Source: an uncultured delta proteobacterium (GTDB lineage: Bacteria > Desulfobacterota > Binatia > JACPRU01). From it: 54,698 bases of DNA. Location of the stretch: positions 1 to 54,698 of the forward strand of contig CAVPWJ010000058.1 of the NCBI GenBank assembly GCA_963708955.1, written 5' to 3'. The notes beneath the pieces were generated by a model. It saw only the letters and a list, made by a program, of their open reading frames with translations. It was not told the origin of the DNA and did no database searches. Each line of letters opens with the position of its first letter. The stretch's first letter is position 1. The translations under genes were made by a program, and so were the position numbers. Positions 2,797 to 21,381 of this stretch are shown here, piece by piece.

Positions 2797-5700
2797 ATGA
2801 TGAACGCTCGCCGCGCATTGCTCTGGATCAGCTTCGTCGCGCTCGTTGCCGGCTCGGCAGCGGCGCAGGCGCCGCCGCCGGTCGGGGCGCCGTTCGGCGA
2901 TTTGCAGGTCCGCTCGGCACCGCGAGTAACCGAAATCACCCTCGAGTTACCCGCGGCGGTGAACGAGGAGGATCGTACCAAGAAGCGGCCCGGGCTCTCC
3001 TCGGCCGGCGTGCCGACGCGGGAGGCGCCTCCGGGCGCGGTCGCGGCGTTGCCCGAGGGAGAGGCCACGCCGCGACCGGAAGCCGAAGCGAAGGCGGCGC
3101 CCGCCGTGACGCCCAGCGGCGGCGGTGAAGCCCGGACGGTGAGCAAACGCGTGTCTCGCCCCGGCGCGCTCACGGTCAACGAGATCCATCTGTTCTTTCC
3201 CGGCTCGACCATCGAGCGGCCGCGGCTGATCACGGTCGATGACCGCATCATCCAGGAGGCGCGCCTCTTTCCCGACGAGGGCGGCGTGAGCATGACCGTG
3301 GTCGTGCGCCGGCCCGTCTACTACGTGGTCTCGCGTGACGCCTCGGAGCTCCACATCCGCGCCGAGCCCGGCACGCTGCTGCTCGCCGAGTCGACCGGAG
3401 ACCTGCCGCGACCTTCGGCGACTCGCAAAGCGGGCGGGCCACGGCCGCGCCGTTCACGTAGCGGCCAGGACGTCGGCGGCTCGCAAGTGCAGGCCGAGGC
3501 GTTGGTCCCGAAGGTGACGATGCCGTCGATGCGCAAAGGCGAGGGGCTGACGATCGACGCCGAGCATCTCTCCGCCGATCAGCAGACCAACGAGATCGTC
3601 GCCCAGGGGCACGTGACGATCGCGCGGGCGAACTCGCTGCTCACCGCCGACGAGGTGCGGATCCATCGCGACTCGCGGCAGGCCCAGGCGCATGGCAACG
3701 TGCAGTTCACCGACCCGCAGGGGACCGTTCAGGCGGACAGCTTCATCGGCAACATCGAGGACGAGACCGGCGATCTCACCAACGGCAGCATCTACCTCAG
3801 CGCCAACCACCTCTCGATCTCTGGAGAAAAGCTGCAGAAGTCGTTCGGCCAGACCTACCACATCGAGAACGGCGAGTTCACGACCTGCCAATGCGGCGCG
3901 GGGCCGCCGAGTTGGTCGATCGCCGGCGACAAGATCGACATCACCTTGAACGGCTACGGCCTGATCGACAACGCGAAGCTCAAGGTGCTCGAAGTGCCGG
4001 TCTTCTATCTCCCGAAGCTCGCCTTCCCGGCCAAGACCACGCGACAGTCGGGACTGTTGTCTCCGCAGTTCAGCTACTCGAAGAAGCGCGGCTTCGCTTA
4101 CACGCAGCCCTTCTTCCTGGTCCTCAACAAGAGCGCCGACCTGACCATCGCGCCCGACATCGAGACCTCGGCGCGCATCGGCGGCATCGGCGAGTTCCGT
4201 TACGCGCTCGACGAGAAATCCAAGGGCGTTCTCGACGTCGCTTTCTTCGACGAATCGCTGCGCAACAACGCCGAGCGCGACATCGTCGACACGTCGATCG
4301 CCGACCCGAGCATCCCCAAGAATCGCTGGAGCGTCACCGCCAACGTCCAGCAGGAGATGCCGTTCGGCGTGCGCGCGTTCGCCGACGCGCTGGCCGTGTC
4401 GGATGACCTGTACATGCGGGAGATCCGCACCTTCTCCTTCGACCCGCAATACGAGCGCACGCTCACCACCAGCCGGTTCGGCTCGTCGAGCGGCGGGCTC
4501 TACAAATCCTGGGAGCACGCCACGCTGGTCGCCCAGGGCGTCTATTACCAGGACTTCATCCAGGAAGACGATCTCACGCTGCAGCGCCTGCCGCAGATCC
4601 AGTTCTTCGGGGCCGACCGCTTCTTCGACCGGCACCTGAAGCTCGGCGTGAACACCGAGTTCGTCAACTTCGACCGCAAGCAAGGGTTCGATGGCCCGCG
4701 GTTCGATCTGGCGCCAACCGCGACCGTTCCGTTCCGCTGGCAGGAGTACTTCAACGGCAACTTCGGGCTACAGTTCCGCGAGACCGCCTACCATCTGAAC
4801 AACACCGACCTGCTGTTGCCGATCTCGCAGGCCGGCGGCGTGCAGACGCCGACCGACACCCAGGCGCTCGACAAAAACCCGACGCGCGAGATCCTGCAGG
4901 CGAGCGCCGTGATCGGCACGCAGATCTCACGCGTGTTCGACGTCGGCGGCGAGCACGTGCAGAAGCTGAAACACACGATCGAGCCCGAGGTGGACTATCT
5001 CTACGTGCCGGACGTCAACCAGGACGACCTGCCGATCTACGACTTCGTCGACCGCATCAACCGCCGCAACGTCTTCACCTACGGGTTCACCACCCGCCTG
5101 CTCGCCAAGCTCGACAAGCCGCCGCCGATCGAGAGGCGCAAGAAACTGTCGGTCGGAGACATGAATCCGTTCACGGGAGAGGCGGCGTCGCCGTTCGACG
5201 ACGAGAACACGCGCGGGGGGCTCTCCTCGCTCGGCAACCCGCGGCTCTCGGGACTCGAGCCGAGCACCGACGGGTTGACGGCGGAGGAGACGTCGCGGGG
5301 CGCGCTCACACCGACCGAAGCCACGGCACCGGAGAGCCTGACCACCGAGCAACGCGCCGAGCAACGCGCCGAGCGGCGACAGGAGGAGAAGTCGGCGCTG
5401 TCGCACGTCGCCGAGTGGGCGCGCCTGCAGCTCTTCCAGAGCTACGACCTGCGCGACAGCCTGCAGTCGAACAAGGACGATCATTTCTCCGACTTCGACG
5501 CCCACCTGCGCGTGTCGCCGGTCGACTACTTCCGCCTGATCTACGAATCGACCGTGAACGCCAAGGAAACGAGCTTGACGTCGGCGAGCGTCGGCGTCCA
5601 GCTCCGCGACCCGCGCGCTCGCGACGTGGCCGGATTCCTCACCGCGACCCAGCGAGCCTCGGCCGCACTCTCCTATCGGTTCATCTCGCAGAGCGTGCTC

Positions 5701-5940
5701 GAGGAAATCGACGGCAGCATCGTGGTGCCGCTGGCCGACACGCTCTCGGTCTTCTACCAGAGCAGCTACGATGCGCTGCAGAAGACCTTCCTCGCCAAGA
5801 TCGCCGGCCTGCGGCTGTCCTCCCAGTGCCAGTGCTGGGTCGCCGACGTCTTGATCGCCGACCGCGTCAACCCGAACGAGACCGAGGTGCGATTCCAGGT
5901 CACATTGATCGGCCTGGGATCGATCGGCCGCGCCCGCTGA
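2797..5940 (+). CDS. lptD: LPS-assembly outer-membrane protein LptD with long N-terminal extension
   Basis: Signal peptide at MMNARRALLW, OstA-like jellyroll (AQGHVTI..LTADEV), FTTC, WSI, VPVFYLP, RQSGLLSP, HTIEPEVDYLYVP and C-terminal QCW...VTLIGLG. It follows folC. The 1645 start given in the ORF track overlaps folC and is not credible. Confidence 0.9.
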   Translation: MMNARRALLWISFVALVAGSAAAQAPPPVGAPFGDLQVRSAPRVTEITLELPAAVNEEDRTKKRPGLSSAGVPTREAPPGAVAALPEGEATPRPEAEAKAAPAVTPSGGGEARTVSKRVSRPGALTVNEIHLFFPGSTIERPRLITVDDRIIQEARLFPDEGGVSMTVVVRRPVYYVVSRDASELHIRAEPGTLLLAESTGDLPRPSATRKAGGPRPRRSRSGQDVGGSQVQAEALVPKVTMPSMRKGEGLTIDAEHLSADQQTNEIVAQGHVTIARANSLLTADEVRIHRDSRQAQAHGNVQFTDPQGTVQADSFIGNIEDETGDLTNGSIYLSANHLSISGEKLQKSFGQTYHIENGEFTTCQCGAGPPSWSIAGDKIDITLNGYGLIDNAKLKVLEVPVFYLPKLAFPAKTTRQSGLLSPQFSYSKKRGFAYTQPFFLVLNKSADLTIAPDIETSARIGGIGEFRYALDEKSKGVLDVAFFDESLRNNAERDIVDTSIADPSIPKNRWSVTANVQQEMPFGVRAFADALAVSDDLYMREIRTFSFDPQYERTLTTSRFGSSSGGLYKSWEHATLVAQGVYYQDFIQEDDLTLQRLPQIQFFGADRFFDRHLKLGVNTEFVNFDRKQGFDGPRFDLAPTATVPFRWQEYFNGNFGLQFRETAYHLNNTDLLLPISQAGGVQTPTDTQALDKNPTREILQASAVIGTQISRVFDVGGEHVQKLKHTIEPEVDYLYVPDVNQDDLPIYDFVDRINRRNVFTYGFTTRLLAKLDKPPPIERRKKLSVGDMNPFTGEAASPFDDENTRGGLSSLGNPRLSGLEPSTDGLTAEETSRGALTPTEATAPESLTTEQRAEQRAERRQEEKSALSHVAEWARLQLFQSYDLRDSLQSNKDDHFSDFDAHLRVSPVDYFRLIYESTVNAKETSLTSASVGVQLRDPRARDVAGFLTATQRASAALSYRFISQSVLEEIDGSIVVPLADTLSVFYQSSYDALQKTFLAKIAGLRLSSQCQCWVADVLIADRVNPNETEVRFQVTLIGLGSIGRAR

Positions 5941-6668
5941 TGAAGGGGGTCGTTCTCGCCGGCGGACTAGGCACGCGCCTCGATCCGCTGACGCGGGTCA
6001 CCAACAAGCACCTGCTGCCGGTCTACGACCGGCCAATGATCTACTATCCGCTGTGGGCGTTGATCAACGCGGGGATCGAAGAGATCCTCATCGTCACCGG
6101 CGGGAACAACGCGGGGGACTTCTTGCGGCTGCTCGGCAACGGATCGGAGTTCGGGCTGAAGCACCTGAACTACACCTACCAGCAGGGCGAGGGGGGGATC
6201 GCCGCGGCGCTCTCGCTGGCCGAGCACTTCGCCGAGGGCGGCAAGATCTGCGTGGTGCTCGGCGACAACATCATCGAGCGGAACATCCAGCGCGCCGCCG
6301 CCGCCTTCCGCCGACAGCCCCGCGGCGCCAAGATCCTGCTCAAGCGGGTGTCCGATCCGCAGCGCTTCGGCGTTCCCGTGCTGCGCGGAAACCGCGTGGC
6401 GCGCATCGTCGAAAAGCCCCGGCGGCCGGCGAGCCCGTACGCGGTGACCGGCATCTACTTCTACGACTCCGCCGTCTTCGACTGCATCCGCGAGCTCAAG
6501 CCCTCGCGCCGCGGCGAACTGGAGATCACCGACGTCAACAACCACTACATCGCCGACGGGTCCATGACCTATGAGATCTTGCGGGGGTGGTGGACGGACG
6601 CCGGCACGTTCGAGTCACTGGCCAAAGCCAGTCGGCTGGTCGCCCGCGGCGGGGCAAACAAATTGTAG
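5940..6668 (+). CDS. rfbA: Glucose-1-phosphate thymidylyltransferase (short, SpsI-like form)
   Basis: MKGVVLAGGLGTRL.PLT..TNKHLLPVYDRPMIYYPL, VEKP, RGELEITDVN, WTDAGT; TGATG overlap with the lptD stop. Confidence 0.9.
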   Translation: MKGVVLAGGLGTRLDPLTRVTNKHLLPVYDRPMIYYPLWALINAGIEEILIVTGGNNAGDFLRLLGNGSEFGLKHLNYTYQQGEGGIAAALSLAEHFAEGGKICVVLGDNIIERNIQRAAAAFRRQPRGAKILLKRVSDPQRFGVPVLRGNRVARIVEKPRRPASPYAVTGIYFYDSAVFDCIRELKPSRRGELEITDVNNHYIADGSMTYEILRGWWTDAGTFESLAKASRLVARGGANKL

Positions 6669-6686
6669 GCTGGGGCTTCGCGTCGT

Positions 6687-6807
6687 GGGTTGGGACGCGG
6701 ATGCGGATGGAGCTGACGGCCCGACAGGCGGAGCGTCTCAATGCGAGTGTCCTGCGGGCCGCAGATCATCCGCTGTGTGCGGCGGCGGAGCTTGGTTGGG
6801 ACAGTCA
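6687..6807 (+). repeat. Dispersed structured intergenic element, copy 1 (candidate cis-RNA or attC-derived repeat)
   Basis: Shares TTGGG..GGATGCGGATGGAGCT..CGGC, CGGGCCGC.G.TCATCCGCTG, GCGGCGGCG.AG and GACAGTCA with 23113-23226(-). Forms a long hairpin from GCGGATG (6703) to CATCCGC (6773). Confidence 0.7.
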
Positions 6808-6885
6808 GAACCGTGCCGCGACCGATGGGCGCTCGGCGCTGGTGTAGAACCACCCCGGGATTTCTGACATCCTCTGGCCTCCGCG

Positions 6886-7341
6886 ATGATCCGCGACGTC
6901 CACGTCAAGAAGCTCGTCGTTCACAACGACGACCGCGGCACGTTGATGGAGGTGCTGCGCGCCGACGACCCGTTCTTCGCGGACATCGCCCAGACGACCT
7001 ACACGGTCGCCTATCCGGGCGTGATCAAGGCATTCCACTGGCACAAGCGGCAGAAGGACATCTGGTTCTTCGCGACCGGGATGGCGCAGGTGGTGCTCTT
7101 CGACATGCGCGACGATTCGCCGACTCACGGGCAAACGAACGTCCTCTACATGGGGGAGCGAAACCCGCTGGTGGTATCGATCCCGGAGTACGTGGCGCAC
7201 GGCTATCGCGTGCTCGGCAACGCCCCGGCCGGGCTTTTCTACCACACCACCTCGACCTACGATCCGCAGGATCCCGACGAGGAGCGCATCCCGTTCGATT
7301 CCCCGGCGATCGGCTTCGCTTGGGCGACCCGCTTCCGGTGA
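6886..7341 (+). CDS. rfbC: dTDP-4-dehydrorhamnose 3,5-epimerase family protein
   Basis: DDRG, PGVIKAFHWH, DMRDDSPTHG, IP..VAHGY motifs. Confidence 0.88.
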   Translation: MIRDVHVKKLVVHNDDRGTLMEVLRADDPFFADIAQTTYTVAYPGVIKAFHWHKRQKDIWFFATGMAQVVLFDMRDDSPTHGQTNVLYMGERNPLVVSIPEYVAHGYRVLGNAPAGLFYHTTSTYDPQDPDEERIPFDSPAIGFAWATRFR

Positions 7342-7348
7342 GCGCGGG

Positions 7349-8352
7349 ATGAGGCTGCTGGTCACCGGCGGGGCGGGGTTCATCGGCGCGAACTTCGTCC
7401 GCTACATGCTCGAGCGCGATCCGGACGTGCGGATCACCACGCTCGATTGCCTGACCTACGCCGGCAACCTCGCGAACCTCGAGGGGGTACGCGACGACCC
7501 GCGCCACCGCTTCGTGCGCGCCGACGTGACCGACGTCGGCGCCGTCGCCGCCGCGCTACAGGGCGGCAGCGATACGATCGTGCACTTCGCCGCCGAGAGC
7601 CACGTCGATCGCTCGATCGCCGACGCGGTGCCGTTTCTGCGCACCAACGTGCTCGGCACCGGCGTCCTGCTCGACGCCGCGCGCGCTGCCGGGGTGAAAC
7701 GTTTCCTCCACGTTTCCACCGACGAGGTGTACGGCAGCCTGGGGCCGACCGAGCGATCGACGGAGGAAGCGCCGCTGCGCCCGACCAGCCCCTACGCCGC
7801 GAGCAAGGCGGCCGCGGACCTGCTCGCGCTCTCCTATGCGCGCACCTACGGGCTCGACGTCGTGGTCTCACGCTGCACGAACAACTTCGGTCCTCTGCAA
7901 TTTCCCGAGAAGGTGATCCCGCTGTTCATCACCAACGCACTCTGCGATCAGCCGCTGCCGCTCTACGGCGCCGGCGCCAACGTGCGCGACTGGATCTTCG
8001 TCGACGACCATTGCGCGGCGCTCGCCTGCCTGCTGCGACAGGGACGGCCGGGCGAGGTCTACAACATCGGCGCGGACAACGAGTGGACGAACCGGGCGCT
8101 CACCGGCGAGATTTTGAAGCGGCTCGGCAAGCCCGAGAGCTTGATCCATCGGGTCACCGATCGTCCCGCCCACGATCGCCGCTACGCGCTCGATTCTTCG
8201 AAGCTGCGGCGCGATACCGGCTGGCGCCCCGCCTACACGTTCTCGGCGGCGATCGATCGCACGATCGAGTGGTACCGCACCAATGAGCCCTGGTGGCGGG
8301 CGGTCAAGACCGGCGAGTATCGAAGGTTCTATGATCTCTGGTATGGAGGGCG

Positions 8353-8359
<7 letters not shown>
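7349..8359 (+). CDS. rfbB: dTDP-glucose 4,6-dehydratase
   Basis: VTGGAGFIG, LTYAGN, HFAAESHVDRSI, HVSTDEVYG, SPYAASKA, QFPEK.IP, HDRRYALD. Confidence 0.96.
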
Positions 8360-9772
<1,413 letters not shown>

Positions 9773-9791
9773 GCCGGCCGGCCGCGCAGCG

Positions 9792-10772
9792 ATGAGGTTC
9801 TTCGTCACCGGCATCTCCGGCTTCGTCGGCACCCATTTGACCGCGGCTCTGCTCGAGCGCGGCGACACCGTTTTCGGGTTGGCGCGCGAAGCTGGATCGC
9901 TCGGCGCGCTGCACCGCCGTTTCGGGGATCGCTTCCCGGAGTCGGCGGTGGCGCTGTGCGACCTGCGCGACCGCGAGCGCCTGCGCGCGGAGCTCGTCCG
10001 CGCCTCGCCCGACGGCGTTTTCCACCTCGCCGGCGTCGCCTTCGTGCCGAAGAGCTTTGCCGCGCCCAACCTCGCCTACGAGGTGAACTTCCTCGGCACC
10101 ACCGAACTGCTCGGCGCGGTGCTCGCCGTCGCTCCAAGAGCGCGGGTCGTGCTGGTGACCTCCGGAGAGATCTACGGCTGGATCGATCCGGCGCGCGATC
10201 TACCGCTCGTCGAGAGCCAGCCGCTGCGGCCGCTCTCGCCCTACAGCGTCGCCAAGGCGGCGGCGGATCTGGCGGGATTCCAGTTCTTCCACGCGCACGG
10301 CCTCGATGTGGTGCGCGCGCGCCCGTTCAACCACACCGGCCCCGGCCAGTCGGCCGATTTCGTCTGCTCGGACTTCGCCCGTGCGCTGGCCGCCGCCGAG
10401 TGCGGCGCCGGCCCGGCGCGCCTCCGGGTCGGCAACCTCGATGTCGAACGGGACTTCAGCGACGTGCGCGACGTCGTGCGCGGTTATCTCGCCTTGTTCG
10501 AAAAAGGGACGGCGGGCGAGGCGTACAACTTGGGCTCCGGCGTGGCGACGCGCGTGGGGACGATCCTCGAGGAGCTACGCGGCTTCTGCCGCGTGACGGT
10601 AGACGTCGAGCCTGATGCGCGGAAGCTCCGCGCGGGGGAGCTGCCGCGCATCGTCGCTTCGATCGACAAGATCCGCGAGGCGACCGGCTGGCGGCCGGAG
10701 ATGCCGCTGCGCCGGACGCTCGCCGACCTGCTCGACGACTGGCGCGCGCGCCTGCGGGAGCCGGGTCGTTGA
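9792..10772 (+). CDS. rmd: GDP-4-keto-6-deoxy-D-mannose reductase-like extended SDR (GDP-D-rhamnose pathway)
   Basis: VTGISGFVG, YSVAK, RPFNHTGPGQ, VGNLDVERDFSDVRDVVRGY; directly after gmd. Confidence 0.75.
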   Translation: MRFFVTGISGFVGTHLTAALLERGDTVFGLAREAGSLGALHRRFGDRFPESAVALCDLRDRERLRAELVRASPDGVFHLAGVAFVPKSFAAPNLAYEVNFLGTTELLGAVLAVAPRARVVLVTSGEIYGWIDPARDLPLVESQPLRPLSPYSVAKAAADLAGFQFFHAHGLDVVRARPFNHTGPGQSADFVCSDFARALAAAECGAGPARLRVGNLDVERDFSDVRDVVRGYLALFEKGTAGEAYNLGSGVATRVGTILEELRGFCRVTVDVEPDARKLRAGELPRIVASIDKIREATGWRPEMPLRRTLADLLDDWRARLREPGR

Positions 10773-11473
10773 GCGCGAGCGGAAGGCGTCTCGGCTTGTC
10801 GGTGGTGATGCCGGCGTTCAACGAGGAGGGCAACGTCGCGGGAGCGATCCGCGCGGTGGCTACCGCCGTCGAGCCGCTGTTCGACGAGATCGAGATTCTC
10901 GTGGTCGACGACGGCAGCCGCGACGCCACCGCCGAGAAGGTACGCGAGGAGGCGCGCGCCGACCCGCGCGTGCGGCTTCTCCAGCACCCGCGGAACCGCG
11001 GCTACGGGGCGGCGGTCACCACCGGTCTCCGCGCGGCGCGCCTACCGCTCGTCTTCTACACCGACTCCGATCTGCAGTTCGATCCGCGCCAGATCCGCGA
11101 CCTGCTCGCCAAGATCGACGAGTTCCCGATCGTCGTCGGCTACCGGCGTAACCGCCAGGATCCCTGGATCCGCAAGCTGAACGCCTGGGCGTGGAACGCG
11201 CTCCAGCGAGTGCTGTTCGGCCTCGCCGTGCGGGACGTCGATTGCGCGTTCAAGCTGCTGCGGCGCGACGTGCTCGACGGCGTCCCGCTGCTGGCCGAGG
11301 GAGCGTTCTTCTCGACCGAGCTGCTGATCCGTCTGCAGGCCTCCGGCCACCGCATCACGGAGGTGGCGGTCGATCATTTCCCGCGCCGGACCGGCGCGCC
11401 GACCGGCGCTCGCATGCACGTCATCCTCAAGGCGTTTCGCGAGATGTGGCGCTTGCGATGGGAGCTGCGCTGA
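10769..11473 (+). CDS. GT2 glycosyltransferase (polyprenol-phosphate sugar synthase-like)
   Basis: LSVVMPAFNEE, VVDDGSRD, NRGYG, TDSDLQFDP, DVDCAFKL. Confidence 0.92.
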   Translation: MSASGRRLGLSVVMPAFNEEGNVAGAIRAVATAVEPLFDEIEILVVDDGSRDATAEKVREEARADPRVRLLQHPRNRGYGAAVTTGLRAARLPLVFYTDSDLQFDPRQIRDLLAKIDEFPIVVGYRRNRQDPWIRKLNAWAWNALQRVLFGLAVRDVDCAFKLLRRDVLDGVPLLAEGAFFSTELLIRLQASGHRITEVAVDHFPRRTGAPTGARMHVILKAFREMWRLRWELR

Positions 11474-11645
11474 TCGGCCAGGGCAGAATTTTGCAATTTC
11501 ATACGACGATATGAGATCCGAGGCCTCAGTAGGCGATGGCCGCTTGGTTGCGGCTGCGAGGCCGCGCTAGGCGATGGCTGCGCCCGGCGCAAGATGGGCA
11601 TCGCCGTCGAGCGGAGCCGCGCGGCCGCCGGTAGCCGCCTGGGCG

Positions 11646-12416
11646 ATGTTCGCCGACCTGCTGCAACACCGCTCGCTAGTGGTTGCGCTGCTCGCGCGAC
11701 AGTTGAAGATCCGCTACCGCGGCTCGATCCTCGGCTTCGTCTGGACGTTTCTCAATCCGCTCCTGCTGATGGCCGTCTACGCGCTGGTCTTCCGCTTCTA
11801 CATGCGGCTCGCGGTCCCGAACTATGCACTCTTCCTGCTCGCCGGCCTGCTGCCGTGGACGTGGTTTGCGTCGTCGCTCACCGAGGGCACCAACGCAATC
11901 GTCGGCGGCAGCTCGCTCGTCACCAAGTCGCTGTTTCCGAGCGAGATCCTGCCGACCGTGGTGGTGCTGGCGAACATGGTGAACTTTCTGCTCAGCATCC
12001 CGCTATTGGTGCTTGCCGGCTGGTTCTACGGGGTTGAGTTTCACCCGCTTGCCTGGCTCTGCCTCGTGCCGATCGTGGTCCTACAGTGCCTGTTCACGCT
12101 CGGCTTGGTGCTGGCGCTGGCTGCGCTCAACGTGCACTACCGCGACGTGCAGCACGTCGTCACGAACTTCCTGCTGCTGTGGTTCTTCCTCACGCCGATC
12201 GTCTATCCGGAGGCGCAGGTGCCGGCGGGATTGCGGGCGCTCTTGTGGGTGAATCCGGTGGCGCTGTTTACCGAGGTCTACCACGGCGTTTTCGTCGGCA
12301 CGTCCTGGCCGAGCCTCCAGACGGTGGGTATGCTCGGCCTGTACACGCTCGGCTCGCTGCTGGTCGGAGCGAAGATCTTCGATGGCTATCGCGACACGTT
12401 CCCCGAGCTCGTCTGA
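11646..12416 (+). CDS. wzm: ABC-2 polysaccharide export permease (Wzm/TagG/RfbD-ABC type)
   Basis: LKIRYRGSILGFVWTFLNPLL, LLPWTWF, YRDVQH, FFLTPIVYP, NPV; several TM segments. Confidence 0.9.
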   Translation: MFADLLQHRSLVVALLARQLKIRYRGSILGFVWTFLNPLLLMAVYALVFRFYMRLAVPNYALFLLAGLLPWTWFASSLTEGTNAIVGGSSLVTKSLFPSEILPTVVVLANMVNFLLSIPLLVLAGWFYGVEFHPLAWLCLVPIVVLQCLFTLGLVLALAALNVHYRDVQHVVTNFLLLWFFLTPIVYPEAQVPAGLRALLWVNPVALFTEVYHGVFVGTSWPSLQTVGMLGLYTLGSLLVGAKIFDGYRDTFPELV

Positions 12417-12424
12417 GCCGCTAG

Positions 12425-13480
12425 CAGCCTGTCGGACTTTCAGTAGGTCCGGGTAGCGAAAAAGGGGTATGGGACAGCATCACGAAGCGGTTCGAGTGGA
12501 TAGGGATGCGGAGGAGAGGATGAGCGGACGATTTGTGAGCGTGGACCGCGACACGGCGTATCTGATGCCGCCGTCGGTGCAGGAGTGGCTGCCCGAGAAT
12601 CATCTGGGGCGGTTTGTTGTCGAGATCGTGGAGCGGCTGGATCTGGGCGGCATGATCACAGCGTACCGGGGGCGAGGTTCGGACGCCTTTCATCCAGCGA
12701 TGATGGTTGCGCTGCTGTTCTACGGATACGCAACCGGGGTGTTTTCGAGCCGCAAGCTGGAGCGGGCGACGTACGACTCCGTGGCGTTTCGGTATCTGGC
12801 CGCGAACCAGCACCCCGACCACGACTCGATCGCTCACTTTCGCAAGCGATTTCTCAAGGAGTTGAGCGCCCTGTTCGTGCAGATTTTGCAAGTCGCGCAG
12901 GGGACGGGCGTGCTGAGGGTCGGCAAGGTGAGCCTGGACGGGACGAAGGTACACGCCAACGCCTCCAGGCACAGTGCGCTCAGCTGGGAGCATGCTTGCA
13001 AGATCGAAGCGCAGCTGCGGGCCGAGGTGGAGGAGTTGATGCGGTTGGCGGAAGAAGCCGACCGAAGCGATCTTCCCGACGGGATGAGCGTGCCGGAAGA
13101 ATTGGAGCGGCGCGAAGCACGCCTGGCGGCGATTGCACGGGCGAAGGTGGAGATCGAGGCGCGCGCGGCCGAGCGCCATGCGCGGGAGAAGGCTGCCTAC
13201 GAACAGAAGATGGCGGAGCGAGCTGCTCCGGGGTCTGAAGTCCGTGCAGCATGAGTGGACCCTGGTCTGCATCGGGTGGAACATGAAACGGCTCCACCGA
13301 CTGCAAATGGCGGCTTGAACAAGGCATCGCCGCGCCCATGCAGCCACGCCTCGCAACCGCGCCACGGCGCTCCAAGCCCCGGCCTTCAGGACTTGTGCTG
13401 GACTTCATCGCTCTCGGATTCTTCGGTCGCATCGCAGCGAAATAAAAGCGAATGTCGCTCACTTCAAGCCCGACAGGCTG
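12425..13480 (+). mobile_element. IS1182-family element, internally deleted (1056 bp), flanked by CTAG direct repeats
   Basis: IRL CAGCCTGTCGGACTT (12425-12439) vs IRR AAGCCCGACAGGCTG (13466-13480), 14/15 match; CTAG at 12421-12424 and 13481-13484. Confidence 0.9.
12520..13318 (+). pseudogene. IS1182 transposase with central deletion and frameshift
   Basis: N-terminal part (PPSVQEWLPENHL, YGYATGVFSSRKLE, PDHD, LDGTKVHANAS) is joined near 13223 to the C-terminal motif LRGLKSVQHEWTLVCIGWNMKRL in another frame. Confidence 0.88.
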
Positions 13481-13552
13481 CTAGCGACGATTGGTCCTTC
13501 ACAAAATACCCGGTGATCTGGTTGCCGGGCAGCCGCGAGTCGGGGCATGCGA

Positions 13553-14344
13553 CTAGCGGCCCTTCCACACCGGCTTGCGCTTCTCGGCGAATGCCCGCGG
13601 CCCCTCCTGCGCGTCCTCGCTCGCATAGGCCTCGCGATAGATGTTGTGCGCCAGTGCAATGCCTGCCTCGCAGCCGGCGCTCATCGCGGTCAGGATCGAC
13701 TCCTTGCCCGCCATCACCGACAGCGGCGCGTTGTCGCGGATGCGCTCCGCCAGGCGGTTGGCCCGATCTCGCACCGCATCCGGCGTGTCTTCGAGGTAGT
13801 TGATAAAGCCGAGTTGATGGAACTTGGCGATCGGCTGCAACTCGCCGGTCAATACCAGCTCCATCAAGAGCGGCTGCGGCAGCATCCACAGCAGCGGGAT
13901 CGCCCACGGGCTGCCGCGCCCGGCAATGCGCGTTTCCGTGATGCCAACCTGGGTGCCCTTGAGTCCCACGCGCAGGTCGGTGTTCAGGCTCAGCATCATG
14001 CCGCCGGCGATCAGGTGGCCGGTCATGGCCGCGATGATGGGCTTACTGACCTTGCGCATGCGGCTGTGGAACGGATCTTTCATCAGCGTCAGGATGTCCA
14101 CGCCTTGTTCCTGCTTGACGCGGGAGGCCTCGCGCAGGTCGAGCCCGGCGCAGAAGGTGCCGCAGTCAGCCGAGGTCAGGATCGCCACGCGAACGCCACG
14201 GTCGGCGTCGACCTGCTCCCAGAGCTCATACAAGCGGTTGGTCGCCGCCACCGACAGCGCGTTGCGCTGCTCGGGGCGGTTGATCTTCACGGTGGCAATG
14301 CCGTCATTGACCTCGTAGAGCACTACGTTGCTGGTATCACTCAT
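13553..14344 (-). CDS. Enoyl-CoA hydratase/isomerase (crotonase family)
   Basis: INRPEQRNAL, FCAGLDL, KPIIAA..G..IAGG, EDAQEGPRAFAEKRKPVWKGR. Confidence 0.93.
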   Translation of the reverse strand: MSDTSNVVLYEVNDGIATVKINRPEQRNALSVAATNRLYELWEQVDADRGVRVAILTSADCGTFCAGLDLREASRVKQEQGVDILTLMKDPFHSRMRKVSKPIIAAMTGHLIAGGMMLSLNTDLRVGLKGTQVGITETRIAGRGSPWAIPLLWMLPQPLLMELVLTGELQPIAKFHQLGFINYLEDTPDAVRDRANRLAERIRDNAPLSVMAGKESILTAMSAGCEAGIALAHNIYREAYASEDAQEGPRAFAEKRKPVWKGR

Positions 14345-14380
14345 CTCTGATCTCCTGGTAGGAACAGTCTCGCCGCAACC

Positions 14381-16384
14381 TCATTCGGCCGCGCCTTCGG
14401 ATTCGACCACCGCCACGACCAGGCCGCGCTCGACCATCTGCCCGGGCCGTACCGACAGCGAACGCACCACACCGTCGTGCTCGGCGCAGATACGCATCTC
14501 CATCTTCATCGACTCCATCGTCGCCACCACGTCCCCGGCGCGCACTCGCTCGCCGACGGCAACGTGCGTCTTGAGGATCATCCCCATCATCGGCGTGCGC
14601 AACTGGCCGCTGGCCTGCCGGGCCGTGGCGGCATGGCTCAGATACGAGGTCACGCCGATCTCGTGCGCGGCGCCGCTGCCCTGCAGGAACAGGGTGTCAC
14701 CGCGCCGCACGATCGTGACCACGTCCTGTCGATCGCCGACCCGCAGCCGCCAGTCCCCCTGCGCAGCGGCAGTCAGCGACAGCCGAACCCGCTCGGCGCC
14801 GACCTGCACCGTGACTTCGGACTCGGGCGACATGGCCCCGAACCGAACCTCGTGCGCGCTGCCTCCCGAGTGCAGCAGCAACGCCGGAATCGAGGTCAGC
14901 GGGTCGTCGCCCGCATCCATCTGCCAGCCCGTCATGTCGAGGGCAGACCACGCCCCGAAGCGGGCGCCCGTGCGCCGCGCATCGAGCAACCACCAGGCGG
15001 CCGCGGCGGCGAGTCGCTCCAGCGGCGCGCCAGGCGCACCGAGGGCCCGCTCGGCCAGCATCTGGTCGATCAGCCGGGTGTGGAACGTGGCGTTGCGCGT
15101 GTCGGGCAGCTCGATCAGACGCCGCAGAAAGGCGCAGTTGGTCTCGACGCCGAGCACCTGGGTTTCGCCCAGTGCCAGGCTCAGACGGTCCAGCGCCGCA
15201 TCGCGCGTGGGAGCGTGAACGATCAGCTTGGCCAGCATCGAGTCGTAGTACGGCGTAACCACCATGCCCGCGCGCACGCCCGATTCGACCCGCACGCCGG
15301 AGGCCGGGAAACGCACCTCGACGAGCTCGCCGGTGGACGGCAGAAAATTGTGCGCTGCATCCTCGGCACACACCCGCGCCTCGACCGCGTGGCCGCGCAC
15401 GCGCACATCGCCCTGGCGCAAGGGCAGCCCCTCGCCGGCGGCGATGCGCAACATGATCTCGACCACGTCGAGCCCGGTCACCTCCTCGGTCACCGGATGC
15501 TCGACTTGCAGCCGAGGGTTGACTTCGAGAAAGTGATGGCGATCCCCCCGCACGATGAACTCCACCGTGCCGACGCCGCGATACCGCAGCCGCTGCCCCA
15601 GGCGCACCGCATCATCCAGCATCGCCTGGCGCAGCGCGGCGGCCAAGTTGGCCGCCGGCGCCTCTTCGATCACTTTCTGATGGCGCCGTTGCAGCGTACA
15701 TTCGCGCTCGAACAGGTGAACCAGCTCCCCGCGCCCGTCGCCGGCGATTTGCACCTCGATGTGACGCCCACGATCGACGAACGGTTCGACGATCAGCGCG
15801 GAGTCGCCGAAGGCACTCTTGGCTTCGCGCATCGCCGACTCGATCTCGTCACTCAGTCCGTCGAGCTGGCGCACCACCCGCATGCCCTTGCCGCCGCCGC
15901 CGACGGCCGCCTTCAGCACCACGGGCAGCGGCAGGCCGTGCACGATGGCCGCTACTTCGGCCGCATCGCGGCTCGGGACGTCGCTGCCACCCAGCACGGC
16001 CACGCCAGCGGCGCGCGCCTCGCGCTTGGCCGCCGCCTTGTCGCCCAGGCGTTCGATGACTTCGGGCGTCGGACCGATGAAGACCAGCCCGGCCGCCTCG
16101 ACCGCGCGCGCGAACGCGGCGTTCTCGGCCAGGAAGCCGAAGCCGGGATGGATGGCCTGCGCCCCGGTGCGCCGTGCCGCGTCGATCACCGCGTCGATGC
16201 GCAGGTAGCTTTCGGCCGCCGATGCCCCGCCGATCTCGATCGACTCGCCGATCAGCTCGACATGCAGCGCATCGCGATCGGCACTCGAGTGCACGCCGGC
16301 CGCCGCGACGCCGAGACGGCGGCAGGTGCGCGCGATACGGCAAGCGATTTCGCCACGGTTGGCGATCAGGATCTTCTTGAACAT
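14381..16384 (-). CDS. Acyl-CoA carboxylase alpha subunit (biotin carboxylase plus biotin carrier; MCC/geranyl-CoA carboxylase type)
   Basis: KILIANRGEIA, IHPGFGFLAEN, GGGGKGMR, ERECTLQRRHQK, LEVNPRLQVEHPVTE, ESMKME biotinylation motif. Confidence 0.95.
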   Translation of the reverse strand: MFKKILIANRGEIACRIARTCRRLGVAAAGVHSSADRDALHVELIGESIEIGGASAAESYLRIDAVIDAARRTGAQAIHPGFGFLAENAAFARAVEAAGLVFIGPTPEVIERLGDKAAAKREARAAGVAVLGGSDVPSRDAAEVAAIVHGLPLPVVLKAAVGGGGKGMRVVRQLDGLSDEIESAMREAKSAFGDSALIVEPFVDRGRHIEVQIAGDGRGELVHLFERECTLQRRHQKVIEEAPAANLAAALRQAMLDDAVRLGQRLRYRGVGTVEFIVRGDRHHFLEVNPRLQVEHPVTEEVTGLDVVEIMLRIAAGEGLPLRQGDVRVRGHAVEARVCAEDAAHNFLPSTGELVEVRFPASGVRVESGVRAGMVVTPYYDSMLAKLIVHAPTRDAALDRLSLALGETQVLGVETNCAFLRRLIELPDTRNATFHTRLIDQMLAERALGAPGAPLERLAAAAAWWLLDARRTGARFGAWSALDMTGWQMDAGDDPLTSIPALLLHSGGSAHEVRFGAMSPESEVTVQVGAERVRLSLTAAAQGDWRLRVGDRQDVVTIVRRGDTLFLQGSGAAHEIGVTSYLSHAATARQASGQLRTPMMGMILKTHVAVGERVRAGDVVATMESMKMEMRICAEHDGVVRSLSVRPGQMVERGLVVAVVESEGAAE

Positions 16385-16391
16385 GCCGGCC

Positions 16392-17999
16392 TCACATGCG
16401 GAACACGCCGAAGCGCGTGTCGCGCTGTGGCTGCCGACCGGCCAGCTCCAGCAGCAGGGCCATGGTGTCGCGCGTTTCGACGGGGTCGATCACCATGTCG
16501 CACCACAGGTTCGAGGCATAGTTGTAGGGGCTCGCAAAACGCTCGAACTGCTCGCGGATCGGCTGCTTGAAACGCTCCTTCTCCTCCTCGGTCCAGGTCG
16601 TGCCTTCGCGCCGGTGGATCTTCTCGCGCACCATGCCCAGCGTGGTGGCCGCCTGCTCCGGGCCCATCAGCGCGGCGCGGCCGGTGGGCCACATCATCAT
16701 CACGTTCGGCTTGAACGGCCGTCCGCACATGGCCATGTAACCCGCCGCATAGGAGCCGCCGGTGATCAGCGTGTAGCGCGGCACATTGGCCGAGGCCATG
16801 GCCGTCATGAACTTCGCGCCGTGCTTGGCGATGCCCTGCTGCTCGACCGCCTGGCCGACCATGAAGCCCGACACATCGACGATGAACCACAGTGGAATGT
16901 CGCGCTGGCAGCACAGCTCGATGAAGTGCGCGCCCTTGAGCGCACTCTCGGAGAAGATCACGCCATTGTTGGCCAGGATGCCGATCTGGAAGCCCTTGAT
17001 GCGCGCAAAGCCGCAGATCATCGTGTCGCCGTACAGCGGCTTGAACTCCCGCAGGTCGCTGTCGTCGATCAGCCGAAGCAGCACCTCGCGGTTGTCGGTC
17101 GGGTGGCGGTTGTCGGCGCTGACGATGCCGTAGATCTCGCGCGGGTCATGGCGCGGCGGCATCGGGGCCGCCGTGTCCCAGCGCTGCTTCGGCGCGGTGC
17201 CGAGATGGGCCACGATGCCGCGCACGATGGCGATCGCGTGGCCGTCGTTCTCGGCCAACTGGTCGGTGACGCCGCTGATGCGGCTGTGCATCTCGCCGCC
17301 GCCCAGCGTCTCGATGTCGACCTCCTCCTTGGTGGCGGCATACACCAGCTCGGGCCCAGCGAGGAACATCGCGCCCTGGTTGCGCACGATCACCGCCTCG
17401 TCGCACAGCGCCGGCAGGTAGGCGCCGCCGGCGGTCGAAGGCCCATGCACGGTCGCGATCTGGGTGATGCCCTCGGCCGACATGCGGATCTGGTTGTAGA
17501 AGATGGAGCCGAACTGGCCGTCGTCGGGAAAGATATGCGCCTGTTCCGGCAGGTTGGCGCCGCCCGACTGGACCATGGTGATGCACGGCAGCCGGTGCTG
17601 CCAGGCGAACATCTGGGCGCGCACGTGTTTTTTCGCGGTGATGCCGTAGTAGCTGCCGCCCTTCACGGTGGCATCGTGGATCATCAGCATGCACGGCGGG
17701 CCCGCCACCAGACCGACGCCGGTGATGATGCTGCCGCCCGGGGGCACGCCCCTGTAGAGGCCGTCGCCGGCGAGTTGCCCGAACTCGAGGAACGGCGAGC
17801 CGATGTCGAGTACGGCGGCCAGGCGCTCGCGCGGCAGCAGTTGCTTGCGCTGCTGGTGCAGCAAGCGCGCCTTCTCGGGGCCGCCGACCAGCGCGCGCGC
17901 TCGGCGTTCATGCAGTTCGCGAATGCGCGCCTCATAGGCTTCGCGGTTGCGGCGGAACTCCTGCGAGTCCAGCGACACGGTAGACGGCATCACGCTCAT
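16392..17999 (-). CDS. Acyl-CoA carboxylase beta (carboxyltransferase) subunit
   Basis: DATVKGG, SGGANLP, STAGGAY.PA, LANNG, GIAKHGAK, RFGVFRM C-terminus; start MSVMPSTV in an ATGA overlap. Confidence 0.93.
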   Translation of the reverse strand: MSVMPSTVSLDSQEFRRNREAYEARIRELHERRARALVGGPEKARLLHQQRKQLLPRERLAAVLDIGSPFLEFGQLAGDGLYRGVPPGGSIITGVGLVAGPPCMLMIHDATVKGGSYYGITAKKHVRAQMFAWQHRLPCITMVQSGGANLPEQAHIFPDDGQFGSIFYNQIRMSAEGITQIATVHGPSTAGGAYLPALCDEAVIVRNQGAMFLAGPELVYAATKEEVDIETLGGGEMHSRISGVTDQLAENDGHAIAIVRGIVAHLGTAPKQRWDTAAPMPPRHDPREIYGIVSADNRHPTDNREVLLRLIDDSDLREFKPLYGDTMICGFARIKGFQIGILANNGVIFSESALKGAHFIELCCQRDIPLWFIVDVSGFMVGQAVEQQGIAKHGAKFMTAMASANVPRYTLITGGSYAAGYMAMCGRPFKPNVMMMWPTGRAALMGPEQAATTLGMVREKIHRREGTTWTEEEKERFKQPIREQFERFASPYNYASNLWCDMVIDPVETRDTMALLLELAGRQPQRDTRFGVFRM

Positions 18000-18064
18000 C
18001 GACGCGGCTCGCCACGCTGCCGAACCGCCCACACGGCTCGTTCGGCGGGTTCTCGCGCGCTCAT
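17996..18064 (-). pseudogene. 22-codon mini-ORF coupled at both ends; probable fused ends of a deleted gene
   Basis: MSAREPAERAVWAVRQRGEPRR*; ATGA overlaps with the upstream stop (18061-18064) and the downstream start (17996-17999). Confidence 0.5.
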
Positions 18065-18395
18065 GCCGCCGCACGCAGCGCCGCGCAGCGCCGCGGGTGA
18101 TGGTCGGAGCTGCCGAACAGGTGGCACAACAGGGTGAGCCGGCGGAAGTAGTGGCCGATGTCCAGTTCCTCGGTCATGCCCACGCCGCCGTGCAACCGCA
18201 CCGCCTGCTGCGCCGGGCTGCCGGCGCGCCACGGCCTGCGCGCCGAGCACGGCGCTGGCGAGATAGGGCTCGACCATCAGCGCGGCACCCATCGACTCGG
18301 CGACCTGGATCGTCTCCACCATGCCGCCACCGAAGCCGCCATGCGCCTCGGGAAGCGCAGCGCCGAGCCAGCCGAACTCGCCGAAACGCTGGAGG
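18061..18395 (-). pseudogene. Acyl-CoA dehydrogenase remnant (5'-truncated, central deletion, frameshift)
   Basis: N-terminal fragment FGEFGWLGAALPEAHGGFGGG...EPYLAS is joined near 18215 to the C-terminal fragment AQQAVRLHGGVGMTEELDIGHYFRRL in another frame. Confidence 0.85.
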
Positions 18396-18420
18396 ATAGT
18401 CACGATAGAGGATAGTCACG
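18392..18420 (+). repeat. 13-bp direct repeat at the truncation point
   Basis: GAGGATAGTCACG at 18392-18404 and 18408-18420. Confidence 0.85.
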
Positions 18421-18638
18421 GGCGGCCGAGTTGCCCGAAAGCCCCGATCTCCGATCTCCGACGTTGCGGACCCCCTACCCTCCTCCTTCGAGACTCCCGT
18501 TTTTATGGCGCACATAAGGCACCCGTCAAGTTGCTTTTGCCGGCGGGACAGCGGGTTCATCGGGCTGGCGCTAGCCCTTCAGCACGTGACACTTTCATTC
18601 ACTACCCCTCGTCGGTTTGACCGGCGCACGGAGAAACC

Positions 18639-20183
18639 ATGACCCCAGACATCGGACTCGGAAACTGGCTGTATCAACGCGCGCAGCGCACCCCACACCG
18701 AAAGGCGCTCACGTTCGAGGGCGCAACCTGGACCTACGCCGAGATTCAGCAGCGCATCGACCGCCTGGCCGGCGCGCTGCGCACGAACGGCGTCTGTCAC
18801 GGCGATCGAGTCGGCTTTCTCGGCTTGAACCAGCCCGCTTTCTTCGAGACCCTGTTTGCCGCCGCTCGGCTGGGCGCCGTGTTCGTGCCGTTGAACTTCC
18901 GGCTCAGCGGGCCGGAGCTCAGCTACATCATCAACGACGCCGGCGTGCACACGCTGGTGGTCGACGAGCCGCACCGGCCGGTAGTCGACGGCATTCGGGC
19001 GGAGCTTCCGTGCCGCCGGTTCTGGTCGGCCGACCAGTCGGTCGAGGGATGGCCGGCGCTCTCCAGCCTGCTCGCCGCGCACGAGCCGCTCGCGGCGGGA
19101 GAGGCGGTCGCTGAGGACGAGGTCGCCGTCATCATGTACACCAGCGGGACGACCGGGGTTCCCAAGGGGGCGATGCTCACCCACGGCAACCTGTGGTGGA
19201 ACAATACCAACGCGATGCTGACACTCGACATCCTCGAGAGCGACATCTCGCTGGTCGTCGCGCCGCTCTTTCACATCGGTGGGCTCAACATCACCACGCT
19301 CGTGACTTGGCAGAAGGGCGGGCACCTCGTCCTCCACCGGACCTTCGACCCGCGGCGGTTCCTGGAGGACGTAGCGACGTACCGCGTCAGCAGCACGTTC
19401 GCCGTGCCGGCGATGCTGCTGTTCGTCAGCCAGCAGCCAAACTTCGCCTCAGCCGACCTCTCGAGCCTGCGCTTGATCGTGTGCGGCGGAGCCCCGGTAC
19501 CGGAGCCGCTCATGCGCCTCTATGCCGAGCGCGGCACCCCGATCAATCAAGGCTACGGGCTGACGGAGACCGCGCCGTTGTTGACCTTCCTCACGTCGGA
19601 GTGGGCGATCGCCAAGATCGGCTCGGCGGGCCTCACGTCGATTTTCACCGAGGTTCGGATCGTCGACGCCAACGGGCTCAGGGTCACGAAGCCGAGGGAA
19701 AATGGTGAAGTCATCGCCCGGGGGCCGAACGTCATGAAGGGCTACTGGAACAAACCCGAGGCAACAGCCGCCGCAATCGACGCGCGAGGATGGTTTCATA
19801 CCGGTGACGTCGGCTACTTCGACGAGGACGGCTTTCTCTTCATCACCGACCGTCTGAAGGACATGGTGATTTCGGGTGGCGAGAACGTCTATCCCGCCGA
19901 GGTCGAGAGCGTGCTCTACGAACATCCGGCGATCGCCGAAGTCGCGGTGATCGGCCTGCCGGACGGAAAGTGGGGCGAAATGGTGATCGCGGTGGTGGCG
20001 CTCAAACCCGACGCCAAGCTCGATCTCGAGCAGCTGAGGGCCTTCGCGACCGACAGGCTGGCGCGCTACAAGCTGCCGCGCCGCCTGGAGATCGTCACCG
20101 CCCTGCCGCGCAACCCGGCGGGAAAGGTTCTCAAGTTCGAGCTGCGCAGCCGATTCGGCGCGGCAGACCGCCCGATCGGCTGA
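18639..20183 (+). CDS. AMP-dependent acyl-CoA synthetase (FadD13/MenE-like)
   Basis: IMYTSGTTGVPKG, GYGLTET, GWFHTGD, DRLKDMVISGGENVYPAEVE, LPRNPAGKVLK; GGAG SD. Confidence 0.94.
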   Translation: MTPDIGLGNWLYQRAQRTPHRKALTFEGATWTYAEIQQRIDRLAGALRTNGVCHGDRVGFLGLNQPAFFETLFAAARLGAVFVPLNFRLSGPELSYIINDAGVHTLVVDEPHRPVVDGIRAELPCRRFWSADQSVEGWPALSSLLAAHEPLAAGEAVAEDEVAVIMYTSGTTGVPKGAMLTHGNLWWNNTNAMLTLDILESDISLVVAPLFHIGGLNITTLVTWQKGGHLVLHRTFDPRRFLEDVATYRVSSTFAVPAMLLFVSQQPNFASADLSSLRLIVCGGAPVPEPLMRLYAERGTPINQGYGLTETAPLLTFLTSEWAIAKIGSAGLTSIFTEVRIVDANGLRVTKPRENGEVIARGPNVMKGYWNKPEATAAAIDARGWFHTGDVGYFDEDGFLFITDRLKDMVISGGENVYPAEVESVLYEHPAIAEVAVIGLPDGKWGEMVIAVVALKPDAKLDLEQLRAFATDRLARYKLPRRLEIVTALPRNPAGKVLKFELRSRFGAADRPIG

Positions 20184-20255
20184 TCGAGACCGTGAGCGCC
20201 GCCGTCTTCGTTCGAGAGTAGCCGCCCACGATCTCGTCACCTCGACACCGTCGCG

Positions 20256-20415
20256 TTACGGAACCATGAAGGTGTCTTCGATGAGGGTCTGGTTAGCGCG
20301 GGCCTCGATGGCCAGCACCTCGTACGGCTGCACCCCTGAGGCCAGGGACGCGACGAACTCTGGCGGGACCGTGACGCTCGTAGTCGTGGCGGGAACGGTC
20401 ACCTGGAACAAACCG
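20256..20415 (-). pseudogene. C-terminal fragment of an uncharacterised beta-rich (FN3-like) protein
   Basis: LFQVTVPATTTSVTVPPEF...YEVLAIEARANQTLIEDTF reads like a real protein C-terminus; the upstream frame looks non-coding. Confidence 0.45.
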
Positions 20416-20497
20416 ATTCGGTGGTCACGATCCCGTGCCTCGTCCTTCCGCCGCCGATCAACCTGACGCCCCTGGAACGAATCCTCTCGGGCGCGGC

Positions 20498-20530
20498 CTT
20501 GGTGCATCTTGGTGCGAAGTGCTGTATCGT
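20498..20530 (+). promoter_or_regulatory. Candidate RHH operator and leaderless promoter
   Basis: CTTGGTGC direct repeat at 20498 and 20508 (period 10); TATCGT at 20525-20530, 6 nt before the ATG; no SD. Confidence 0.45.
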
Positions 20531-20536
20531 GAAGCC

Positions 20537-20794
20537 ATGTCGAGCCTCGCAAAACCCATCCGTCAGAGCGTCAGCATCCCGCCACGCATCGCCCGCGAAG
20601 TGCAGGCCTTGGCGAAGCGGAAAAAGGCCAGCACCAACCGTGTGATCGTGGATTTGATCGAGTGCGGTCTCGAAGCCCAGGACCAGGAGAAGAGGCGCTT
20701 CTTCGAGCTGGCCGATCGGCTGGCGAGCTCGTCCGACGCCGCCGAGCAGAAACGCCTCAAGGAAGAGTTGGCCCGCATGACCTTCGGTGATTGA
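20537..20794 (+). CDS. Ribbon-helix-helix DNA-binding protein, putative antitoxin (85 aa)
   Basis: RQSVSIP strand followed by two helices (RIAREVQALAK, STNRVIVDLIECGL) and a charged helical tail. Confidence 0.75.
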   Translation: MSSLAKPIRQSVSIPPRIAREVQALAKRKKASTNRVIVDLIECGLEAQDQEKRRFFELADRLASSSDAAEQKRLKEELARMTFGD

Positions 20795-21351: not shown

Positions 21352-21381
21352 GAGGGCCTCCTCCGTCAGGAGGAAGCCCTC
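21352..21381 (-). terminator. Hairpin downstream of tRNA (probable terminator)
   Basis: On the minus strand GAGGGCTTCCTCC-TGAC-GGAGGAGGCCCTC; the U-tract is weak. Confidence 0.55.

Follow-up and report, generated by a model that had tools for sequence, protein, structure and literature searches.

The DNA analysed here is a stretch of 54,698 nt (the window) from the genome of an uncultured delta proteobacterium, in which two operon spacers carry copies of a structured, non-coding element. Copy 1 (6687-6807, +) lies between an rfbA-like and an rfbC-like gene, and Copy 2 (23113-23226, -) lies between scpA and scpB, 16.4 kb away and on the opposite strand. The two copies are members of a dispersed family and not an isolated pair. 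This family exists, is polymorphic in its insertions and constrained in the structure of its stem, and matches models of attC, the hairpin site of integrons. We interpret the two spacers as probably holding a lineage-restricted, non-autonomous mosaic repeat, which derives from attC and resembles the repetitive extragenic palindromes (REP) and bacterial interspersed mosaic elements (BIME), rather than a working attC.

Copies in the genome and in its relatives

In pairwise alignment, the two window copies were identical at 76% of the columns. They had in common, in the same order, the blocks TTGGG, GGATGCGGATGGAGCT, CGGC, CGGGCCGC, TCATCCGCTG, GCGGCGGCG.AG and GACAGTCA. All of these had been listed in an earlier reading made from the letters alone (the sequence-only reading), which had proposed either a new cis-acting RNA or a dispersed family of repeats descended from attC.

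The window's genome (G000) is a metagenome-assembled genome (MAG) of 2.98 Mb in 253 contigs, with 66% GC, 80% completeness and 3.5% contamination. A blastn search of the whole genome with Copy 1 retrieved Copy 2 at 75.4% over 126 nt (E 1.8e-6). Iterated nhmmer searches recovered 13 copies. A covariance model (R1), built from these 13 and containing dispersed copies only, gave 24 matches at E<=1, of which 14 were below 1e-5. R1 missed some copies with short loops, such as that in the rpsM/rpsK spacer. The genome contained at least 20 copies, and the E-values of many were 1e-6 to 1e-18.

The comparison panel consisted of 41 genomes, namely G000 and 40 relatives. G001 belongs to the same genus (g1), and the bacterial family is labeled f1. 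At E<=0.001, R1 matched 10 of the 41 genomes, including five of the seven other f1 genomes. There were 14 R1 matches in G001 and 9 in G007. The sampled f1 loci (one each from G002, G003, G004 and G007) were spacer copies with a tail and without the AAC...GTT cores of attC. The sampled matches outside f1 were ordinary attC with AAC...GTT in G031 and G023, and a core-less sequence in G026 that looked like a chance match. Public genome contigs were also scanned for the arm pattern of the hairpin, which yielded mostly chance or coding matches; locus L132, among the matches listed, was a true family member.

The anatomy of the family was worked out on 30 G000 and G001 loci. A short 5' module, G-rich and ~10-35 nt long, lies behind the upstream stop codon. 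Next come one or two hairpins of 30-80 nt, and a conserved tail of ~45 nt comes last. The two arms of the hairpin read GCGGATG-G-AGC and GCTCATCCGC, and the 5' arm contains an extra base or two. The single bulged G was present in 13 of the 13 seed copies, and the second extra base, an A, was found in A-type hairpins. In the A type, the arms are extended by TGAC-GGGC / GCCC-GCRG. In the B type, which often lies 5-7 nt past A, the same arms are extended by CGCCGG / CCGGCG. The middle of the hairpin varied from 9 to 58 nt and was unalignable between copies.

The tail reads GGCGGCG ... CTTCGG ... GTCATTG, often ends in CGAAGAG, and occurs behind the last hairpin only. The order in doublets was always A, then B, then tail, and the copy types ranged from 30-nt mini hairpins through singles to doublets. 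Tails of non-orthologous copies gave alignment scores of 34-43, compared with a shuffle maximum of 28, and a tail profile search found tails solely adjacent to hairpins. Among the upstream flanks of non-orthologous copies, just two pairs exceeded the shuffle maximum. The 5' module of Copy 1 was similar to the sequence 5' of a single G001 copy that is not its orthologue.

One G000 copy (C83:7177-7300, -) had the 5' module fused directly to the tail, without a hairpin. This copy may be the product of a slippage deletion between the GGCGGCG direct repeats that flank the hairpin.

Structural constraint on the stem

In an R1-fitted alignment of 38 sequences, 93% of the cells of the 16-pair stem were paired, compared with 85.3% in shuffles. 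Changes on both sides were seen in 12 stem pairs, which none of 500 shuffles reached; slid controls gave at most 5. The alignment leans towards structure, because it was fitted to the R1 model. With 12 pairs changed on both sides, the stem covaried.

The core of each window copy was one hairpin with one bulged G in the 5' arm, as the sequence-only reading had described it. That reading had also proposed a long hairpin whose middle differs in sequence between the copies and still pairs, and this held in part. The cores and the middles folded, and the variable middles of Copies 1 and 2 folded better than shuffles (z -2.8 each; 1 of 200 shuffles equal). On the other hand, the whole pieces (121 and 114 nt) were no better than shuffles (z only -1.31 and -0.92), and the minimum-energy fold of the 121-mer of Copy 1 was a different structure without the long hairpin. 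The hairpins of sense copies had folding energies of -20 to -48 kcal/mol and no U tract.

Relation to integron attC sites

Integron integrases above the curated cut-off were found in G000, G001 and G009. The G000 integrase was full-length (C248:4111-5055, -; TIGR02249, 470.5 bits), and AAC...GTT attC sites lay downstream of its gene (C248:817-3362), apparently on the same strand. This genome also carried at least three other attC arrays, of 4, 3 and 2 sites, at C86:31676-34154, C3:4386-5930 and C21:10820-11478.

The covariance models matched in both directions. R1 matched array sites next to the intI genes of G009 (13 sites) and G003 (2 sites), with scores of 25-41 bits, and also AAC...GTT sites of an Acidobacteriota array. 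On five genomes of other phyla, it gave one or two matches each. A home-made covariance model (R2), for which 22 attC sites from arrays were the sole training set, ranked dispersed copies first on G000 (C118 52.3, C8 45.8, the rps spacer 45.1, C159 42.8, then 41.8 bits). In the same search, the genuine G000 arrays (C21, C86, C3 and C248) scored 14.8-47.7 bits.

A different result was obtained for the R''/R' cores (AAC...GTT), which are the points of cleavage by the integron integrase. Among 35 dispersed hairpins, none had AAC within 5 nt upstream, two had GTT within 8 nt downstream, and none had both. Among 34 control attC sites, AAC was found in 28, GTT in 27 and both in 23. Neither window copy had either core, in agreement with the sequence-only reading. 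The likeness to attC thus stood as far as the attC-trained R2 matched the copies, and failed at the cores that define attC. This indicated that the dispersed repeat is not a working attC.

Among the matches listed from the arm-pattern scan, arms flanked by RYYYAAC ... GTTRRRY were found in MAGs of Acidobacteriota, Chloroflexota, Bacteroidales, Nitrospirae and Binatia. One arm match flanked by AAC...GTT sat in an array (L173), with similar hairpins 0.6-2.4 kb apart in a scan for AAC...GTT hairpins.

Sites of attC with the exact 11- and 10-nt arms were seen at L058, L063, L065, L071-L074, L078, L081, L084, L090, L103, L111, L125, L133 and L134. Their hosts, according to the MAG titles, were Acidobacteriota, Chloroflexota (Anaerolineae and Dehalococcoidia), Bacteroidales, Roizmanbacteria, Nitrospirae and Binatia. 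These identical arms in MAGs of many phyla suggested one attC subtype common across phyla. On the R'' side, L111, L125, L065 and L090 had TATC or CATC instead of TAAC. On the R' side, L111 had GATA and L125 had GTCG; L065 and L090 retained GTTA.

Like attC, the repeat is an imperfect inverted repeat with L''/L'-type arms, of which the 5' one has one or two additional bases, and its middle varies in length and sequence between these conserved arms. It also lies right behind a gene's stop codon, mostly in the same orientation. It differs from attC in its missing cores, its head-to-tail doublets 5-7 nt apart, and its family-specific 5' module and tail.

Clusters of attC sites lacking an integrase (CALIN) are defined in PMC4889954 as at least 2 attC sites within 4 kb; the repeat, in contrast, did not form arrays and had no cassette open reading frame (ORF), and its neighbours were housekeeping genes. 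Single attC sites outside integrons (SALIN) are reported in 2469 of 21,105 genomes in the preprint 10.1101/2022.09.11.507474, which gives a single site for 1847 of the 2469, compared with at least 20 copies of the repeat per genome.

Judging from these matches, the hairpin module shares its ancestry with the L''-stem-L' portion of the attC sites found in integrons of this lineage and of several other phyla. The direction appears to have been from attC to repeat and not the reverse, because attC with these arms spans phyla, whereas the core-less, tailed form was seen only in f1.

Insertion sites, orientation, gain and loss

The genes on either side of each copy were identified by scanning the adjacent ORFs against Pfam, and orthologous sites were merged. 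This gave 22 classified sites; two further sites were unclassifiable and stand outside the 22. Nineteen sites lay between co-directional genes and three between convergent genes, and none between divergent genes. The repeat was in the sense orientation at 17 sites and antisense at five (two-sided binomial p 0.017), the latter being lysA/dapF, aminotransferase/tyrA, rny/ymdB, DUF362/secA and guaB/guaA. Pfam confirmed the sense orientation claimed for both window copies in their operons, and over the 22 sites the orientation was biased and not random.

Orthologous sites were filled in some relatives and empty in others. The scpA/scpB spacer was filled in G000 only, where it measured ~145 nt, compared with 5 nt in G007 and G003 and ~35 nt in G001. 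The scpB start in G000 differed from that in the relatives. The guaB/guaA and DUF362/secA sites were filled in G001 (doublet plus tail) and empty in G000. At the secA site, the filled allele reads TGA-(176 nt)-TGA, compared with a single TGA in the empty allele, in which stop and start overlap (GTGA). The DUF1015/thyX site was filled in G000 and empty in G001.

At the gatB and TonB-receptor sites, only the left half of the hairpin remained in G001. G001 shared six sites with G000, and both genomes were also filled at rpsM/rpsK and Omp85. These shared, filled or empty, and half-lost sites suggested that the family is old, has been gained at different sites in each lineage, and is decaying.

The stop codon before sense copies was TAG at 11 of 18 sites, compared with ~23% genome-wide (p 6e-4), a background taken from rough genome-wide codon-usage gene calls. 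Examples of TAG stops were window 6666-6668 and loci L002, L004, L008, L040 and L044. In scpA and in rpsM of G000, a TGA stop was followed by TAG or GTAG within two codons. Genes adjoining copies (rfbC at 6886, scpB at 23091, secA and guaA; L041 and L043 in G001) began with ATGATC or GTGATC, and the scp and secA insertion junctions had TGA at both sides. These starts and TGA-bounded junctions could reflect target preference or coincidence.

Comparison with known intergenic repeats

The repeat resembles the REP/BIME of Escherichia coli in several respects. It is a short GC-rich imperfect palindrome in many copies, is restricted to transcribed spacers (22 of 22 sites separate co-directional or convergent genes), combines with other conserved motifs into a mosaic (5' module, A and B hairpins, tail), and varies in presence among relatives. 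It is unlike REP in having no GTAG adjoining the palindrome and no association with a REP-associated tyrosine transposase (RAYT). Its hairpins are also longer (30-80 nt), and their stem sequence is that of attC.

Miniature inverted-repeat transposable elements (MITEs), of which Correia, ERIC and RUP are examples, offer another comparison. Like them, the repeat is small (~100-190 nt), non-coding and insertion-polymorphic, has one 3-nt target duplication, and may bring expression signals to the next gene, as its tail appears to do at scpB. Unlike them, it has no established terminal inverted repeats and no known parent insertion sequence, and its own inverted repeat is internal. The mycobacterial interspersed repetitive units (MIRU) lie between operon genes near stop and start codons with a sense bias, and the repeat is alike in this. 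Unlike MIRU, as these are generally described, its lengths vary freely.

The family is kin of known kinds, namely REP/BIME-like repeats and relatives of attC. In the literature searched, to which the published SALIN lists did not belong, no intergenic repeat family resembling attC was described.

Proposed origin and spread

Many copies, filled and empty orthologous sites, and model matches in both directions supported the dispersed attC-derived family, which was one of the two natures put forward by the sequence-only reading. Its distribution is what points to the direction of descent. On balance, we lean towards a history in which the hairpin of the integron recombination site left its integron in this lineage and spread between genes across the genome, behind housekeeping stop codons and oriented as an attC is behind a cassette gene.

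The element would have lost, or never had, the R''/R' cores. It would have spread within one bacterial family into transcribed spacers, mostly in the sense orientation and just behind the upstream stop codon. Insertion may have occurred by a staggered cut or microhomology that duplicated a few target bases, as suggested by the one clean 3-nt duplication of TGA. Copies would then decay; in one such case, a deletion between the GGCGGCG direct repeats on either side would remove the hairpin.

REP sequences protect mRNA and separate cistrons. In the 17 sense copies, the transcribed hairpin could act in a REP-like manner, parting cistrons that were formerly coupled and possibly protecting the upstream mRNA. 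Such a side effect at the RNA level is plausible. The tail may sometimes supply a new ribosome-binding region, as at scpB.

Several points weighed against this interpretation of an attC-derived repeat. A mobilising enzyme was not identified for the family. The clean target duplication was found at one site only (secA), the thyX, gua and scp junctions being ambiguous, and visual inspection of the copies revealed no convincing terminal inverted repeats. The sites used to train R2 had been picked via R1 or by the arm pattern, and the reciprocal match of the two models is thus partly circular. The variable middle alone beat shuffles (z<-2) in just 8 of 35 hairpins, both window copies included, with a mean z of -0.66. 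On the given strand, 19 G.T cells were counted versus 12 A.C or C.A cells (p 0.28). This excess was not significant, and therefore the data did not tell RNA from DNA as the folded species. G000 is an incomplete MAG, so that the copies counted in it are minimum numbers, and their orientation is known relative to genes and not to replication.

Alternative explanations

A dedicated cis-acting RNA, such as an operon processing or stability site that recurs through selection in each operon, would account for the sense orientation at 17 of the 22 sites, the location of all 22 in transcribed spacers and the covarying stem. It would also fit the six orthologous sites kept in G000 and G001 and the filling of rpsM/rpsK in both. 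Scans of both window spacers for sigma-70 promoters and intrinsic terminators found 0 sites; the copies being neither, read-through RNA would carry the hairpin.

However, the repeat was antisense at five of the 22 sites, varied from 30-nt mini hairpins to doublets and had no conserved apical sequence. It was also gained or lost between close relatives, with several copies truncated, and there was no excess of G.T on the sense strand. Rfam matched no family to either copy at E<=1 and reported only a tRNA in the window at gathering thresholds. We therefore consider a cis-acting RNA, one of the two natures put forward by the sequence-only reading, unlikely as the primary nature of the element.

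A working or recent attC, still able to recombine and placed around the chromosome as an ORF-less cassette or a SALIN when the integrase recombined attC x attG, would be favoured by the integrase and the several attC arrays of the genome, by the attC-trained scores of the copies, which were as high as those of genuine attC, and by the extra bases lying in the same arm as in array sites. The preprint 10.1101/2022.09.11.507474 reports SALIN and also reports that the integrase inserts cassettes at GWT sites across genomes. Against it stood the cores, both of which were present in 0 of 35 hairpins versus 23 of 34 controls. The doublets 5-7 nt apart and the lack of a cassette ORF also spoke against it, and the TGA duplication at secA is unlike the outcome of site-specific recombination. 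Moreover, the tail lies 3' of the hairpin, whereas a cassette inserted by the integrase should, from the position of the crossover, end at the hairpin. Such a site appears quite improbable here.

Mobilisation by a RAYT, as in REP and REPIN families, would be in keeping with copies that are palindromic, extragenic, transcribed and able to form doublets, and with the TAG or GTAG often found upstream of sense copies. A Y1_Tnp gene was present in each of the four f1 genomes searched (six loci). The only such G000 gene (C227:2328-2567; L052:1310-1804, -) is, on the other hand, truncated and IS200-like, and lies in an AT-rich patch of the 66% GC genome. No family hairpin was found within 1.5 kb of the six loci in these four incomplete genomes, where the best R1 score was 10.2 bits. 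In the REPtrons studied in PMC8266576, GTAG directly precedes the palindrome or is 2 bases off, whereas none of the 35 hairpins had GTAG in the 10 nt before the arm. The upstream TAGs were the stop codons of neighbouring genes, 8-34 nt off, and were missing at antisense copies. These results leave a RAYT very improbable.

Chance similarity between two GC-rich spacers would be helped by the 66% GC of the genome and by the weak z of the whole elements (-1.31 and -0.92). It was refuted by the nhmmer and R1 searches, with E-values of 1e-6 to 1e-18 for many copies, by the common order of blocks and by the recurrence of the family in relatives, and its probability is close to nil.

Implications

The attC-derived repeat touches the origin of integron cassettes. 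In PMC8618304 and PMC4889954 this origin is called unknown, and PMC8618304 names cassette formation among the outstanding questions. There is a slim chance that units of a gene plus an attC-like hairpin are raw material for new cassettes, or that attC descends from REP-like repeats. A lineage in which attC-like hairpins follow ordinary genes at no fewer than 20 sites, and in which one genome also has an integrase and real arrays, is a natural system for studying hairpins that are or become recombination sites, integrase binding, and effects on operon expression. Should the family be no more than a REP-like repeat in decay, it would be an ordinary feature of unusual ancestry. On the practical side, the copies will yield spurious calls of single attC sites and break short-read assemblies.

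The two copies and their surroundings in the window

Copy 1 is preceded by an ORF for an rfbA-like nucleotidyl transferase (5415-6668, +; NTP_transferase, PF00483, 2.7e-54), which ends in TAG at 6666-6668. Its true start is further downstream than that of the listed ORF, because the Pfam domain begins at residue 177. The 5' module extends from the stop codon to the hairpin (6669-6702, +), is G-rich and ends in GGAT. The hairpin (6703-6773, +) consists of a left arm (6703-6713), the variable middle (6714-6763) and a right arm (6764-6773). The left arm is GCGGATG-G-AGC, with the bulged G and the second extra A after TG, and the right arm has one mismatch to the family consensus. This hairpin had a folding energy of -42.5 kcal/mol and scored 77.2 bits with R1 and 26.7 bits with the attC-trained R2.

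The tail module of Copy 1 (6774-6816, +) reads GGCGGCG ... GACAGTCA ..., and the tail hidden Markov model matched it at 6778-6816. The rest of the spacer (6817-6846, +) had no counterpart in the rfbA/rfbC spacer of G007, and its membership in the element is uncertain. From ~6847 on, the DNA upstream of rfbC is native and common to G007. The rfbC-like dTDP-sugar epimerase gene (dTDP_sugar_isom by Pfam) follows at 6886-7341 (+).

In G007, the corresponding position of the rfbA/rfbC spacer (L022:2222-2338) was occupied by another insert of ~117 nt, which lies within a 13-nt inverted repeat that has no relation to the family. This suggested that the spacer has been colonised twice.

Copy 2 is preceded by scpA (23234-24739, -, as the ORF was listed; Pfam), which ends in TGA at 23236-23234. 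Its 5' module (23212-23233, -) contains an in-frame TAG two codons past this stop. The hairpin (23147-23211, -) is made up of a left arm (23211-23201), a middle (23200-23157) and a right arm (23156-23147). Its folding energy was -41.3 kcal/mol, with 66.3 bits for R1 and 18.6 bits for R2 (genome-wide E 0.05). The tail module (23101-23146, -; tail model match 23143-23096) ends in ...CGAAGAGG. This end, with GAGG 10 nt before GTG, reads as the predicted Shine-Dalgarno region of scpB. The scpB gene (22291-23091, -; Pfam) starts with this GTG at 23091-23089.

Contigs of four public DNA runs, aligned to 6000-23600, contained no joint skipping either element. One of them bridged Copy 2 with 1 difference, in a run that is possibly the source sample. 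Another public-run contig (X1, record 1; window 6357-6713) stopped inside the hairpin of Copy 1, which suggested that such repeats break short-read assemblies.

A tyrosine recombinase gene, likely of the XerC/D type, is located just upstream of the scpA/scpB operon (25792-26592, -). It scored 69.7 and 44.5 bits against the integrase model, under the cut-off, and the same arrangement of recombinase and scpA/scpB was also present in G001, G003 and G007. The sole Rfam match of the window at gathering level was the tRNA gene at 21406-21479 (-).

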